DNA of 45,092 nt from Planctomycetota bacterium (GCA_038213805.1 JBBQSO010000042.1:1-45092), one strand, 5' to 3'; shown: positions 29,684 through 45,092, counted from the stretch's first letter. The notes: generated from the letters alone by a model not told the origin. Program-made: numbers and translations.

Positions 29684-29692
29684 GGCGGCGCA

Positions 29693-29781
29693 GCCGGAAG
29701 AGTCAGTCGTCTGTTCAGAGCGCCAACGGCACGGCGCCCATTTCCAGCCCAGGGCAACGCCTTGCTCGTTACCCACAACCG
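29693..29781 (+). repeat. Degenerate truncated copy of the REP/MITE unit
   Basis: gccggaag...gtcgtctg...gagcgccaacggc...cagcccagggcaacgcc followed by a decayed terminal repeat (gctcgttacccacaac). Confidence 0.6.
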
Positions 29782-29807
29782 CAGTGCGGTCCCAGGGCTC
29801 ACGCCCT

Positions 29808-30202
29808 ACCCATTACCCACAAGTCAGGGTCGTCCGGTAACCATATGCCGGAAGGCCGTCTGATTTGAGCGCCAACGGCGCGACCAGAGGGGCAGCCCAG
29901 GGCAACGCCCTGGGATTACTGGAAAAAAGGAGAATGAGCCCTGAAGGGGCGGCCACTGGCATCCTGTCAGTCTGCTGCTGTGACCGCGCGCATTTCATGC
30001 GCCGAGAATGCGCTCGTGCGCGAGCCTACTTTGCTGATTCCGCTCGATAGGAACCGCCCCTTCAGGGCTCAGAATCTTTTTTTGCACTACCCAGGGCTTC
30101 GCCCTGGGCTGCACGTCTGGCCGCGCCGTTGGCGCTCTTAACAAATAGTCACTATGTCCCCCGTGAGCTGCCGCACGTCCTTCTGACTTGTGGGCAATGG
30201 GT
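29808..30202. mobile_element. 395 bp MITE-like element inserted in a REP-like hairpin, with an internal REP doublet
   Basis: Terminal inverted repeats 29808-29827 and 30183-30202 (19/20 identical). Flanking direct repeat AGGGCTCACGCCCT at 29794-29807 and 30203-30216. Internal inverted arms 29867-29952 and 30054-30137. No transposase ORF. Confidence 0.75.
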
Positions 30203-30450
30203 AGGGCTCACGCCCTGAGCTAATTTCTTTCGCCCGCTCCACGACCTCGTCGCCGCTGCGCCGGACCCGTCCTGTTGGACCCGGACGCCCCGCCGACGCC
30301 CACCTCGACGCCATCCGGTACAATCTTCGCCTTGGACTGGTACGATCCTTCCGCGCATCCGCGGGTGCCTGCCGCGCCGCGCGGCGGCGCGCGGGTATTC
30401 CGTCAGCATCCCGCGGCGGAGACGGTACTTCCGTATTCCGAGGTGACCCC

Positions 30451-33400
30451 ATGTCCGTGACCATCACGTCCCGCTGGCCGCTGGCTGCCGTGTTCTTCGC
30501 CCTGGCGGCGTGCCTGTTCGGCGCCGAGCCGCTCGAGGTGCGCGCCGGCGACCGCGTCCTGCTGATCGGCGACACGCTGTTCGAGCGCGAAGGCGTGGCA
30601 GCGGCGCTCGAGACGCGGCTCTACCAGCGCTGGGCGCCGCGCGGCTTCACGGTGCGCAACCTCGCGGTCAGCGGCGACCGCCCGGACGGCATCGCGCGCG
30701 CCAGCTTCGATCCGCTCGGCGCGGGCATGACCCGGCTGACCGAGCAGCTCGCCCTGGTCAAGCCGACCGTGGCGATCCTCGGCTACGGCATGGCGGCCAG
30801 CCTCGATCAGCTCGCCTGGCAGAGCGGCGACCCGGCCCTCAACCCCGATCCCGCGCGTTACGGCGAGGGCTATCCTGCTGGCCGCTTCAAGGACGACCTC
30901 GGCAAACTGATGGACGCCATCACCGCCAGCAACGGTGGTACGCCGGTGCGCTTCGTGCTGGTCGCGCCGATCGCGCCCGAGGACCTGCGCGCCGGTCGCC
31001 CGGCGATGACGGATCCGGCCGCACACCGCGCACTGCTCGCTGAATACGTGACCGTCCTGCGCGACCTCGCCCAGGCGCGCGGCGCGCGCTTCGTCGACGC
31101 CGCGGCGCTGCTGCCCGGCGGCGGCCTGACCGACAACGGCATCCACCCGACTCCGGCCGGCCTCGAGCGCTGGGCCGACGCAGTGGCAGGCGCGCTGGGT
31201 TGGAACGGCGCCGGCGAGCACCCGTGGACGCCCGCGGCGCTGGCCGCGCTGCGCGCCACCCTGCGAGCCAAGAACGACCTGTTCTTCCACCGCTGGCGCC
31301 CGGCGAACCAGACCTACCTGTTCGGTTTCCGCAAACACGAGCAGGGCCGCAATGGCGCCGAGATCGCGGTCTTCGACCGCATGATCGCCGAGACCGAGAC
31401 CGCCATCGCCGCGCAGGTCGCCGGCCAGCCCGCGCCCGCGCTGCCCATCAAGGCGGCGATCGGCCCCGCGCAGGAGGCGGTGCCCGCGCCCGCCTTCCAG
31501 ACCGCGCCCGGCGTCGAGGTCGCGCTGTGGGCGCAGAATCCGCTGCTCTCCAAGCCGGTGCACCTGGCTTGGGATGCGCACGGCCGCCTGTGGGTGTCGT
31601 CGACGCCCCTCTATCCGATGATCGAGCCGGGCGCGGTGGCCAGCGACCGCGTCTACGTGCTCGAGGACACCGACCACGACGGCAAGGCCGATAAGGCCAC
31701 GGTCTTCAGCGACCAGCTGCTCATCCCCAGCGGCCTGGCGCCGGTGGAGCGCGCCGACGGCAAGGCGGAAGCCTATGTCGGCGCCTCGACCGAGCTGCTG
31801 CTGCTGACCGACACCGACGGCGACGGCAAGGCCGACCAGCGCCGCGTGGTGCTGAGCGGCTTCGGCACCGAGGACACCCACCACACCCTGCACACGCTGT
31901 ACTGGGGCGTCGACGGCCGCCTCTATTTCGACCAGAGCGTCTACATCCACAGCCACCTCGAAACGCCATGGGGCGTAGTGCGCCTGAACAGCGGCGGCGT
32001 CTTCGCCTACGATCCGCGCAGCGAGCGCGTCACGGTGTTCATCAAGGGCCTGTGGAATCCGTGGGGCCACAAGATGGACGCCGAGGGCCAGAGCTTCTTC
32101 ACCGACGGCGCCGGCAGCAGCGGCATCAGCTGGGGCTTCCCGGGCGCGGTGTTCGGGCCCAGCGAGGGCTCGCGCGCGACCATGCCCGGCATTAGTCCCG
32201 GCAGCTATCCCAAGTTCTGCGGCCTGGAGCTGATCGCCAGCCCGGCCTTCCCCGCCGACTGGCAGGGCCAAGCCATCACCTGCGATTTCCGCGCCCACCG
32301 CGTGGTGCGCATGGCGATCACGCCGCTCGCCGGCAAGGCCGGTTACGTCACCGCCGACCAGGCCGACCCGATCCGCTCGCCGGATGCGTTCTTCCGCCCG
32401 ATCGACGCCAAGCTCGGCCCCGACGGCGCGCTCTACCTCGCCGACTGGACCAATAGCGTCATCAACCACGGCGAGGTCGATTTCCGCGATCCGCGCCGCG
32501 ACAAGGATCACGGCCGCATCTGGCGCGTGACCAGCACCGGACTGGCGCCGCTGGTGTGGAAGCCGGTCGCCGGGCGCAGCGTCGCCGAGCTGTGCGACGC
32601 CCTGCTGTCGGCCAACGCCTGGGAGCGCGACAGCGCGCGCCGCGTCCTCGCCGCTGCGTTCGATGACGCCGCCGACGCCGCGCTGACGGCGTGGAGCGCC
32701 AAGCAGGGCACGCCGGCCGCCGCGCGCGCCGCCGCGTTCGTGCGCCGCTCGGCCGGCCGCGACGCCGCCGCGCTCGCCGGACTCGATGCCGCTGCCGCCG
32801 ACCAGCGCGCGATCGCCGCCCGCTGGCTGGGCGACCTGCCGCAGGCGCCCGAGCGCCTCGCGCGCCTCGCCAAGCTCGCCACCGACGAGGTCCCGCGCGT
32901 GCGCCTCGAGGCGATGCGCGCCCTGGCGCGCATCCCCACCATCGCCGCCTTCGACGCGGCCCTGGCCGCCATCGCCACGGTGCCGGGCGACGACGTGCAC
33001 GCGAACTTCGCCGCGCTGGTCACCCTCGACACCTTCGGCAAGCGCTGGGTCGACGCGCTGGTCGCGGGCAGCTGGGATCCCGCCGGCCGCGAGGCGGCCA
33101 CGGTGCGCGCGCTGCAGATCCTGCCGGCGAACGTCGCGGCGCCCGCGGCCGCCAAGTTGCTCGCCACCCAGCCGCACCTTGAGCAGGAGCCGTGGCCAGA
33201 GCTCGCCGCGCACGCCGGCGACCAGGCCGCGATTGCGCGCCTGTTCGCGGTCGCCGCCGCCAGTAAGGACGCCGGCGCCCAGGCGCGCCTGCTCGCCGCC
33301 TGCGGCGAAGCCGCCGGCCGCGGAGTGCCCGCACCCGCCGACGTCGGCGCGCTCACCGGCCTGCTCGCCAGCCCGGACGTCGCGGTGCGCAAGGGCGCGC

Positions 33401-34719: not shown

Positions 34720-34854
34720 GCGCGATGGGATTTCCGCCAGGAGACATGGGTCCCAATCCGGCTGAACCGCGGAAGATGCGCACATCATCCGCGCTAGCGT
34801 GTCGTTTTGGGATTCCGCTCGTGGGCATCAAGATCGCCCGTTACTGCTCATGAC

Positions 34855-35353
34855 GAGCCCGCGGAGGCGGGCGGAAGAAATTTGCCCAGGGCGTGAGTCC
34901 TGCTCACTACCCACAAGTCGCAGCGCTCGGGCACTGACCGTCTTGTCAGCCCAGTCCTGTCCGCAGCCCGCGGAGCGGGCGACACATCGTAGCCCAGGGC
35001 GTGAGCCCTGGGAACCTCGGTTAGAGAGGAGGATCGGAGCCCGCGGAGCGGGCGGCACAGGTCCTGCCATATCGAAATGCGGTGAATGCAGGTCATTGCC
35101 GGAGTTTTCGAGACGTGATGATCCACGGACATCCCCAGATCGGACCCCAATGGTCGTGCATTACCGATGAGCCTGCTGTGTCGCCCACTCCGTGGGCTGA
35201 CCCGCAGACACTCTGCGCGACCCAGGGCTGGGGCCCTGGGCTACGATGTGTCGCCCGCTCCGCGGGCTCTGAGTGGCTGCGATTCGACTGACTTGTGGGT
35301 AATGGGTAGGGCTCACGCTCTGGGCCAATTTCTTCCGCCTGCTCCGCAGGCTC
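34855..35353. mobile_element. Second nested REP/MITE structure (406 bp between terminal repeats) with a different internal REP doublet
   Basis: Terminal repeats 34902-34919 (decayed) and 35290-35307 (perfect). Outer inverted REP arms 34855-34901 and 35308-35353. Inner arms 34965-35060 and 35176-35268. Confidence 0.7.
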
Positions 35354-35465
35354 ATGTTCAGACCTCCGGCGCTGTTGCCGAGATTCCAAACCCAATCATG
35401 CGCTCCACCCCGATACCAAATCCAATCCGTCGCGTCTCCTGCGATGAACGACAGGGATGGCCACC

Positions 35466-36590
35466 TCACCCCCCTGGCCGCGTCACGCTGCCCCTGGTCA
35501 CCAGCAGCCACGGCTCCATGCGCTGCACCTTCGGCCCCGCGCGCCACGCCTGTGGATCGGCGAGTCCCGAGACGGCGAGTTCGACGGCCATCGTGCCGGC
35601 GGCGAAGAACGGCGGCTGCAGAGCGGTGAGCGGCGGCGCGAAGCGGTAGGCGTAGACGTCGTCAAAAGCGATCACCGAGAGGCGCGCGGGGATGGCCCAG
35701 CCGAGCGCGGCGGCGGCGGCGTAGAGGCCGGCGGCGTAGGTCTCGTCGTAGCACAGCACGGCGGTGGCCTTGGCGAGCTGCGCGCGCGCGCCGAGCGCGG
35801 CGTCGCGGGCGACATCGATGCGGCGGCCGCCAATCGGCGCGTCGAGTGCCACCTCCAGCGCCTGCCAGGTCTGCCCCAGGCGCGCGGCGTGCTCGGCGAC
35901 GGCGTCGCTGCGGCGCAGCGCCCAACGGTGGGCGTCACGCGGCGGGCCGAACCAGAAGATGGAGCGGTGACCGTGGCCGGCGAAATGCTCGAGCGCGGAT
36001 ACGGCCCCGGCAGCGTCGTCCAGGCAGATGCTGGGCAGGCCGGCGTTGTCGGGCCACTCGATGGTCACCACCGGGGCGGTGAGGCCGGTGAACAGCGCCG
36101 GGTTCTCGGGACCGCGCTTGCCGAAGCCGAGCAGCATCAGCGCGTCGATGCGCCCTTCGAGCAGGGCGGCGCGCGCGGCGAGCGGCGCGCTCAGTCCGTC
36201 GGCGGCGTAGACCGGCGCCAGGTACATGCCGGCCGCGTGCGCGGCCGAGATCAGGCCTTCGCGCAGGGGCGCCCAGAAATGGGCGTCGTAGATCACCGGA
36301 TCATTGTCGTAGGCGCGCAGCGGCGTCTCGGCGCTGACCAGGCCGAGCACGCGCGCGCGCCGGCCCTCGCGCAGGGACTTGGCGAAAAAGGAGGGGACAT
36401 AACCGAGGTCGCGCGCCGCGTCGACGATGCGCGTGCGGCAGGCCGCGCTCACCCGGGTGTAGCTGACGGGCGCGCTGAGCACCTTGCTGGCCGTGCCGAC
36501 GCTCACCGCCGCCTGCCGCGCGACGTCGCGCAAGGTCACTCGCTGGAGCACCTTGCGCGGTGTGAAATCCTTTTCCCGGGAATGGTCCAT
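35466..36590 (-). CDS. LacI family transcriptional regulator, ~374 aa
   Basis: VTLRDVARQAAVSVGTASKVLS HTH, LGYVPSFFAKSLR hinge, GHGHRSI, ATAVLCYDE, IPARLSVIAFDD, PPLTAL. Confidence 0.9.
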   Translation of the reverse strand: MDHSREKDFTPRKVLQRVTLRDVARQAAVSVGTASKVLSAPVSYTRVSAACRTRIVDAARDLGYVPSFFAKSLREGRRARVLGLVSAETPLRAYDNDPVIYDAHFWAPLREGLISAAHAAGMYLAPVYAADGLSAPLAARAALLEGRIDALMLLGFGKRGPENPALFTGLTAPVVTIEWPDNAGLPSICLDDAAGAVSALEHFAGHGHRSIFWFGPPRDAHRWALRRSDAVAEHAARLGQTWQALEVALDAPIGGRRIDVARDAALGARAQLAKATAVLCYDETYAAGLYAAAAALGWAIPARLSVIAFDDVYAYRFAPPLTALQPPFFAAGTMAVELAVSGLADPQAWRAGPKVQRMEPWLLVTRGSVTRPGG

Positions 36591-44904: not shown

Positions 44905-45092
44905 CCCGCGGAGCGGACGGAAGAAAGCAGCCCAGGGCGTTAGCCCTAACCATTACCCACAAGTCTGCGTCGGCCGGGAACCACAGGCCGGAAGGTCGTC
45001 TGCCGTGAGCGCCAACGGCGCGACCAGACGGGCAGCCCAGGGCAACGCCCTGGGTTCATGGGAATACATGACGTTCGAGCCCTGAAGGGGCG
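44905..45092 (+). mobile_element. Third REP/MITE copy, left part only (truncated by window end)
   Basis: REP arm 44905-44947, terminal repeat 44948-44965, then linker and inner arm colinear with 29826-29952. Confidence 0.75.

Follow-up and report, generated by a model that had tools for sequence, protein, structure and literature searches.

A miniature element with Tn5-like ends, very probably inserted in a RAYT-type REP hairpin of an uncultured planctomycete

Symmetric target preferences are known in the IS4 family for IS10 (hot-spot consensus), IS231A (GGG-N5-CCC) and Tn5. REPIN-RAYT systems were reportedly described by Nunvar in 2010 and by Bertels and Rainey in 2011. Insertion sequences (IS) that target REP sequences are treated in the available parts of Tobes and Pareja 2006 (PMC1525189) and of a review (PMC3184786). 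In the former, they comprise IS1397, ISKpn1, IS621, ISPpu9/10, ISPsy8, ISPa11, ISRm22 and ISRm19, from five families. ISRm22 is filed there under IS4; it inserts on the dyad of a palindromic site. Some copies have no duplication, which the authors ascribe to recombination between copies. The same portion of the paper mentions Tn5 sites that are palindromic and have G/C where the repeats end. De Palmenaer et al. 2008 (PMC2266710), in the part available, report some insertion specificity of IS231A and give CW------Y---CA-A--W- as the end consensus of the IS50 subgroup. Nezha/ISNpu3, which appears in the accessible section of the review, is a cyanobacterial MITE and IS.

The locus described here belongs to an uncultured planctomycete (GCA_038213805.1; genome G000, 5.5 Mb in 180 contigs, 69% G+C). 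The window, that is, the whole stretch of 45,092 nucleotides that was analysed, is its contig C42. It holds a MITE at 29806-30204 that is real and recently inserted. Our overall reading is that this MITE has Tn5-like ends, lies in a REP hairpin of a RAYT system, is flanked by a 10-bp duplication and carries a REP pair as cargo; we regard this reading as very probable. The example is new; the kinds of element to which it belongs (IS-derived MITE, REP-targeting element) are already known, and MITEs derived from IS are common. A preliminary description of the locus had taken it for something not described before, which is at odds with the REP-targeting IS in the portion of Tobes and Pareja 2006 cited above.

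Compared with IS50/Tn5 as presented in the available part of PMC2266710, the end fits the consensus at 7/7 positions and the partner transposase has Tn5 domains and the YREK spacing. The IS50 subgroup is listed there with 1350-1550 bp and with duplications of 8-9 bp; the partner IS at locus L119 is 1563 bp long, and the duplication measures 10 bp in the present case (9 bp with 3-nt loops). The 10 bp of the window MITE are within the IS4-family figure of about one helical turn and one above that of the subgroup. Unlike IS50/Tn5, the elements strongly prefer one hairpin, and the nearest plasmid-borne relatives are about 37% identical. With the REP-targeting IS, as far as the portion of PMC1525189 goes, they share that nearly all copies lie in REPs at one fixed position. 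They differ in that most copies are MITEs rather than IS, that the cargo itself consists of REPs, that the duplication spans the loop and the inner stem (10 bp, versus 2-6 bp) and that the host is an uncultured planctomycete.

As in the IS4-family preferences, the site GGC-N3/4-GCC is dyad-symmetric, with outer G/C triplets at the ends of the duplication, as for a symmetric dimer. In contrast, the preference here exceeds the duplicated core (42/23,538 core sites take 37/45 ends) and the spacing follows loop length. As in REPIN-RAYT systems, target and cargo REPs flank Y1_Tnp genes in inverted orientation and the cargo is a REPIN-like inverted pair; unlike them, the window MITE has inverted DDE-type ends and target duplications. 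Particular to the present case are the IS4/IS50 family, a target and a cargo of the same hairpin kind, a duplication length that tracks loop length and an end conserved across many phyla.

Boundaries of the element and of the duplicated target

The segment, its terminal motif, the flanking repeat and the internal hairpins are all found where the preliminary description placed them. The ends are inverted (21/22 bases) and the 14-base flanking repeat AGGGCTCACGCCCT is perfect at 29794-29807 and 30203-30216. In the window, AGGGCTCACGCCCT has 6 matches at up to 2 mismatches, versus a shuffle mean of 0.86, and none of 100 shuffles reaches 6. The terminal 20-mer ACCCATTACCCACAAGTCAG has 4 matches at up to 3 mismatches, versus 0 in 100 shuffles: 29808-29827 (+, 0 mismatches), 30183-30202 (-, 1), 35288-35307 (-, 0) and 44948-44967 (+, 2). 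Two "decayed" copies of the end, near 29764 and 34902, are visible in the sequence with more than 3 mismatches to ACCCATTACCCACAAGTCAG. Inside the MITE, two intact hairpins have the form CCCAGGGC-NNN-GCCCTGGG. In silico excision of the element and one repeat leaves CCCAGGGCTCACGCCCTGAGC followed by AATTTCTTTCGCCCGCTCC, thus restoring a single REP-like hairpin as had been claimed.

The preliminary description drew a segment of 395 bp with a 14-bp duplication. The repeat is indeed perfect; the boundaries are redrawn on the basis of copies at other sites. In G015, from another genus, and in G007, copies lie at non-REP sites. There, 6 of 7 pairs with CT...AG termini have perfect 10-bp duplications, 0 of 42 cross-paired flanks match, and the dinucleotides CT and AG stay constant where the adjoining flanks vary. 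Locus L014 of G003, a genome of the same genus as that of the window, has a hairpin target whose stem, CCCCGGGC..GCCCGGGG, is a variant one. T and A nevertheless adjoin the element, at positions where a 14-bp duplication would predict G and C. Together, the non-REP copies with their clean duplications and L014 place the element at 29806-30204 (399 bp, termini CT...AG, non-coding, no long ORF expected), with the 10-bp duplication GGCTCACGCC. The apparent length of 14 bp arises because the stem (AG|GGC..GCC|CT) equals the terminal CT/AG, so that the extra 2+2 bases are the element's own termini.

With these boundaries, the left terminal inverted repeat (29806-29827, +) consists of CT and the 20-mer, and the right one (30183-30204, -) is 21/22 identical to it; features given here without a sign have no strand assigned. 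The two copies of GGCTCACGCC, at 29796-29805 and 30205-30214, match at 10/10 positions, and the 9- and 11-bp registers misfit. The left part of the split target hairpin, CCCAGGGCTCACGCC (29791-29805), is of the class with a 4-nt GTGA/TCAC loop. The right part (30205-30243) comprises the remaining hairpin (…CTGAG), a spacer AATTTCTTT and the partner REP CGCCCGCTCC. This hairpin-spacer-REP unit is also found upstream of many element ends and beside a RAYT gene on contig C97.

In G003, a perfect direct flank repeat of 9 or 10 bp is present in 10 of 15 elements, and 13 of 15 have at most one mismatch. When flanks are cross-paired, a perfect repeat is seen in 29 of 210 pairings (14%); some direct flanks are thus expected by chance, because GTGA/TCAC loops dominate. 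The matches include rare loops (AAC, GTT, AGGG) and therefore represent duplicated targets rather than parts of the element. With hairpin targets having a 3-nt loop, the duplication is 9 bp (L012, L015), and lengths across phyla range from 8 to 11 bp. In the genome of the window, a perfect duplication flanks only 3 of 11 CT/CT pairs. Such cases are usually put down to recombination between copies, which may also account for the missing duplications here.

The interior contains two cargo REP doublets. The left one (29867-29914, +) consists of GAGCGCCAACGGCGC (29867-29881) and the hairpin CCCAGGGCAACGCCCTGGG (29896-29914). The right one is inverted (30090-30137, -) and consists of the hairpin CCCAGGGCTTCGCCCTGGG (30090-30108) and GCGCCGTTGGCGCTC (30123-30137). 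Between them, the cargo centre (29938-30068) has inverted GCCCTGAAGGGGC / GCCCCTTCAGGGC at its borders, a motif that is also found beside the RAYT gene on contig C48. Upstream of the MITE, the decayed end of an older element (29762-29784, +) abuts the half hairpin CCCAGGGCAACGCC (29748-29761). The left part of a third copy, of the same family as the MITE at 29806-30204 and 83% identical, lies at 44946-45092 (+), where the window end cuts it.

A second MITE, of another family but with the same ends, occupies 34900-35309. Its flanks match at 4/10 positions in direct and at 8/10 in inverted orientation, so that no duplication is visible; the outer flanks are inverted hairpin copies. Its cargo, of the other REP type, is a complete inverted REP pair made of GCCCGC-loop-GCGGGC and a 4-nt-loop hairpin.

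REP hairpins as target and cargo

A Y1_Tnp (RAYT-type) gene at C97:14408-14752 (77.3 bits) lies between units carrying 4-nt-loop hairpins. On both sides and in inverted orientation, its flanks show GCCCGC-loop-GCGGGC units with a 4-nt-loop hairpin, which is the class hit in the window. Another Y1_Tnp gene, at C48:21166-21507 (93.2 bits), lies between doublets carrying 3-nt-loop hairpins. Its flanks are also inverted and show GAGCGCCAACGGCGC with a 3-nt-loop hairpin, the class found inside the MITE. The cargo doublets (window 29867-29954 and 30054-30138) are 83-85% identical to the two flanks of the C48 gene. These RAYT-gene flanks identify target and cargo as REPs belonging to two RAYT systems; the cargo resembles an inverted REP pair devoid of its RAYT. 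Weaker Y1_Tnp matches occur at C11:20588-20812 (36.5 bits, in a 222-aa frame) and C70:3522-3821 (32.6 bits, in a 318-aa frame); the searched hairpin motifs were not found beside these two.

The insertion into REP hairpins at a fixed position, proposed from the window, is borne out by the whole genome. There, 37 of 45 CT-bearing ends follow CCCAGGGC-N3-5-GCC at one exact position (...GCC|CT). Five of the remaining ends come after heptamer-array-like sequence and three after other sequence, two of the latter being decayed or variant hairpins (C65:13100, C7:33774). The genome contains 12,003 GGC-N4-GCC sites (19 in perfect hairpins) and 11,535 GGC-N3-GCC sites (23 in perfect hairpins). Perfect hairpins thus make up only 42 of 23,538 core sites, and hairpins at up to 2 mismatches number 154. 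Among 90 strand-wise perfect hairpins, 15 have the tag GTAG in front; CCAG (12), GCAG (9), CTAG (4), ACAG (2) and TTAG (2) are found there as well.

The cut falls after CAG on each strand and is symmetric about the dyad. This fits a symmetric transposase dimer, and recognition by such a dimer may be the cause of the preference. In 18 elements of other genomes with perfect 8-11-bp duplications, the mean complementarity of symmetric positions is 0.50, versus 0.26 in shuffled sequences (maximum 0.36 in 200 shuffles). Palindromic targets therefore seem common for the lineage. The copies of G015 are mostly without palindromic targets.

Heptamer arrays, (CCCTAGA)n / (AGGGTCT)n, form a second landing site for the elements. 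Cases are found in this genome at C40:46740-46780, C31:48465-48900 and C21:7880-7900, and at L009 in G003. Further microsatellites of heptamers and hexamers, among them (CAGCCAT)n, (GCGAGAA)n and (GATGCG)n, are common in the spacers of both genomes.

In Rfam, the REP doublets give only sub-threshold matches to the Acido-Lenti-1 RNA (RF01687), with 24.9, 18.8 and 18.3 bits for a gathering score of 37. The matches are located at window 30090-30136 (+), 30203-30238 (+) and 29868-29914 (-). The Acido-Lenti-1 "sRNA" motif may be a REP-type repeat and not an RNA gene.

The suggestion, first made from the window, that the element disseminates REP doublets and so gives rise to nested arrays is supported by a single clear case of nesting and by a rough count. 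The nested case is a copy of the MITE family at C105:17188-17299; the right end of an IS interrupts it exactly in the cargo hairpin equivalent to window 30090-30108. Regarding the doublets, counting modules at up to 2 mismatches gives 283 sites, mostly noise; only the 39 sites in a BLAST match to the element were therefore used. Of these doublet sites homologous to the cargo, 20 lie within matches that also cover non-REP parts of the MITE, and hence within copies of the family.

Spacers appear to turn over quickly. The window loci 29684-30451 and 34731-35477 were compared with G003:C23 and G010:C189. The flanking genes are 86-94% identical between these congeners, but the orthologous spacers of G003 and G010 have unrelated REP/MITE content. 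Repeat turnover is therefore much faster than gene divergence, and the comparison leads to no conclusion on an empty site, either for the window MITE or for the second copy. In contigs of four public runs, no joint skipping the element was found that would represent an empty site of the 29806-30204 insertion. In runs X1 and X2, some contigs cross the left junction by about 13-15 bases, and the others start within the element and continue past its right junction; the contigs of the four runs speak neither for nor against polymorphism. In the reverse direction, the flanks of 9 of 15 G003 elements are collinear with this genome and 7 were aligned. One usable presence/absence contrast between species emerged, for a related element: L023 in G003 corresponds to C65:24300-24540 in G000, where the REP unit is without the MITE. 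The contrast is imperfect, since 6-7 hairpin bases are missing in G000 and the G003 copy itself has no duplication.

Ends, candidate transposase and distribution

When aligned with the IS50-subgroup consensus, the end CTACCCATTACCCACAAGTC agrees at all seven defined positions (C1, T2, T9, C13, A14, A16 and T19). Judged from their sequence, the ends of the MITE are those of an IS4-family, IS50-subgroup (Tn5-like) IS, whose transposase would mobilise it. The preliminary description had pointed to IS982 instead. This lead does not fit the ends or the partner, and the "ACCC" start on which it relied vanishes once the termini are placed at CT.

The partner was found in the surroundings of the end core CTNNCCATTACCCACAAGTC. 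Among the matches listed for this core, seven loci have in common a long ORF inward of the end. One of them, L119 2501-4063, is an autonomous element of 1563 bp with the same end core and the 9-bp duplication AGCTCCGCT; it is a copy enclosing a transposase ORF, of the sort that the preliminary description suggested looking for. The element encodes a 479-aa protein with the Pfam domains Tnp_DNA_bind, DDE_Tnp_1 and Dimer_Tnp_Tn5, which scores 402.8 bits with NCBIfam transpos_IS4_3 (NF033590; cut-off 160). In the PDB, it matches Tn5 transposase over residues 18-463 (E 5e-37). The YREK signature, Y-2-R-3-E-6-K, is readable in ...WYGQRWQIEIYFRTLK.... MITE and IS have only their roughly 22-bp ends in common. 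The MITE is small, non-coding and multi-copy, and its family shows no relation to the IS end sequence in the interiors. The earlier proposal that the element is non-autonomous and mobilised in trans would agree with the existence of this Tn5-like partner.

Genes of transpos_IS4_3 type scoring above the family cut-off are present in 3 of 48 genomes of the window's order. Full-length transposase genes are found in G008 and G002 (same genus) and in G020 (same family). G002 has variants of the end core (1-3 mismatches in 16), and the same 10-bp flank, CTTTGGAGAC, adjoins two of its outer ends. In the genome of the window, contig C66 starts with the last 37 or more transposase codons, followed by the end inside a REP hairpin. 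Two further contigs, C55 and C105, terminate within this IS right end. The three junctions (C55:35606, C66:205 and C105:17298) are nearly identical over about 140 bases and each breaks the assembly. The partner IS is therefore probably present here at three or more sites, collapsed in the assembly. Since its body is absent from the assembly, an intact transposase gene is inferred in this genome from about 200 bases at three contig ends. A tblastn search of this genome with four transposases gave the C-terminal fragment on C66 as sole match.

Among 27 DDE_Tnp_1 loci scanned in G000, G003, G010, G015 and G007, none has these ends. When six of the 27 loci were scanned for inverted repeats, the clear pairs obtained were unrelated to these ends (e.g. 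CAATGCCGTTCACTT). The CAATGCCGTTCACTT ends belong to another, unrelated IS, which is about 1.35 kb long, contains a DDE_Tnp_1 gene and is found at C123:1-1353 in G000 and at L043 (G003:C3). Around the nearest plasmid-borne transposase relatives (about 37% identity), the end core was not found within 6 mismatches; the IS50-type end of the Ralstonia relative is a different one. Another Tn5-like IS, L176 (G020:C416) 1229-2751, has an inverted repeat that extends past CT on both sides (…CCCGCGAATGAATT in each flank). This copy has either longer ends or a palindromic site; no direct duplication was seen.

The 20-mer ACCCATTACCCACAAGTCAG has 44 matches in the whole genome at up to 4 mismatches, and a stricter core with the leading CT yields 45 element ends. 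Inward of the end, the DNA belongs to several classes with no relation to each other. Outward, one finds a hairpin with a 4-nt or a 3-nt loop, a heptamer array of (AGGGTCT)n type or, in rare cases, unique sequence. From this diversity on both sides, the end motif is a junction common to several element families and not a fixed part of a REP. Besides the window copy, the MITE family has six copies with 289-396 aligned bases and 75-85% identity, one of which is cut by a contig end. There are further fragments at contig ends, and copies in the genome span 75-86% identity.

The end core is present in 7 of 41 related genomes sampled, including this one, and an exact-match search of the whole order found it in 6 of 48 genomes. 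In an exact scan of one genome per species, CTNNCCATTACCCACAAGTC occurs in at least 107 stretches that span many phyla and do not have this REP. Chloroflexota, Planctomycetota, Verrucomicrobiota, Cyanobacteria and Bacteroidota are represented among the matches listed. In these, the partner end, where visible, is mostly about 130-490 bp away, which designates them as MITEs; many stretches have a single end. G003 contains a family of about 200 bp with these ends. The three "single" ends of G003 that were compared (L016-L018) turned out to be small elements, about 160-200 bp long, whose partner end has decayed; their assignment as IS was rejected. A full-text literature search with the end core sequence found no paper containing it. 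An IS with these ends may well be catalogued already.

Alternative explanations and wider reading

The locus could be read in other ways. In the version of the preliminary description, the termini are ACCC...GGGT and the element is of a new kind, moved by some hairpin-specific transposase, with duplication of all 14 bp of the hairpin. At the window MITE, the 14-bp repeat is indeed perfect, and at canonical hairpins the two sets of boundaries are indistinguishable because stem and termini are both AG/CT. However, non-REP targets show 10 bp next to invariant CT/AG (6/7 pairs), L014 has T and A where G and C are predicted, the IS50 consensus fits from the C of CT, and a Tn5-like partner was found. 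We therefore hold this version to be very improbable. Even less credit can be given to a recombination mosaic in which the 20-mer is a fixed module of one REP/BIME class and no transposition occurs. Most ends are beside the same hairpin, 8 of 11 pairs in this genome have no duplication, and the spacers are mosaics with quick turnover, all of which a mosaic would explain. It is nevertheless ruled out by the three left contexts of the end (4-nt-loop hairpins, 3-nt-loop hairpins, heptamer arrays) in addition to unique sequence, by the unrelated interiors that it bounds, by its spread over many phyla without this REP, by the transposase gene that it also bounds, and by duplications that match within elements far more often than across. 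Other duplication-flanked copies, an autonomous partner and occurrences of the motif outside one REP class were indeed found.

Movement by a RAYT (Y1/HUH) enzyme is hardly tenable either. In that case, the element would be a REPIN-like unit and the flanking hairpins would be its recognition sites in direct orientation, as in IS200/IS605. In favour of this, the genome has two RAYT genes and REPs that match them, the interior resembles a REPIN in being an inverted pair, and IS200/IS605-type ends carry like-oriented hairpins. Against it, the flanking hairpins differ between copies of one family and match within a copy, which identifies them as a duplicated target and not as a part of the element. 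Moreover, copies at non-hairpin sites have 10-bp duplications, and single-strand Y1 transposition yields no duplication. A different question is whether the MITE, though real, is a dead relic in a genome left with no active transposase to move it. Only about 200 bases of the IS are assembled, and most copies here are diverged (75-86% identity) or without duplications. Yet the window copy has 21/22 matching ends and a perfect duplication, and the three IS right-end junctions are near-identical over about 140 bases, with the assembly broken as by a multi-copy repeat. A relic is thus somewhat unlikely.

We favour a Tn5-like MITE mobilised in trans by cut-and-paste chemistry. The DDE transposase supplied by the IS would bind the two 22-bp inverted ends and excise the element. 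Its 3' AG ends would then be joined to target DNA with a 10-bp stagger, the repair of which would create the duplication GGCTCACGCC. The target is the symmetric core GGC-N4-GCC of the REP hairpin (CCCAGGGC-loop-GCCCTGGG) of one of the two RAYT systems. As the cut comes after CAG on each strand, the stem bases at the cut equal the CT/AG termini, hence the apparent 14-bp repeat. As the interior is an inverted pair of REP doublets of the second RAYT system, each insertion would add two hairpins of the preferred kind.

A bolder proposal, which we consider unlikely, is that a widespread Tn5-like transposase lineage, whose end hardly varies across many phyla, is specialised to capture hairpins or cruciforms over plain duplex, and forms a loop with REP-RAYT systems in this planctomycete lineage. 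The stem arms would place the cuts, so that the duplication would follow loop length (9 or 10 bp). If true, REPs would be safe landing sites and MITEs would copy REP pairs around the genome, with about half of one REP-doublet class carried in such MITEs.

The locus is a worked example of how microhomology between element termini and target inflates an apparent duplication. What seemed an oddity, a 14-bp duplication made by an unknown enzyme, is recast as an ordinary and testable case. With its very conserved end and with palindromic targets in other phyla, this Tn5-like transposase lineage could suit the study of symmetric or structured target choice by Tn5-type enzymes. On our favoured reading, REPs of RAYT type are the main landing pad of a Tn5-like IS and its MITEs, and the MITEs carry REP pairs in turn. 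Two mobile systems feeding each other are documented here in a little-studied phylum.
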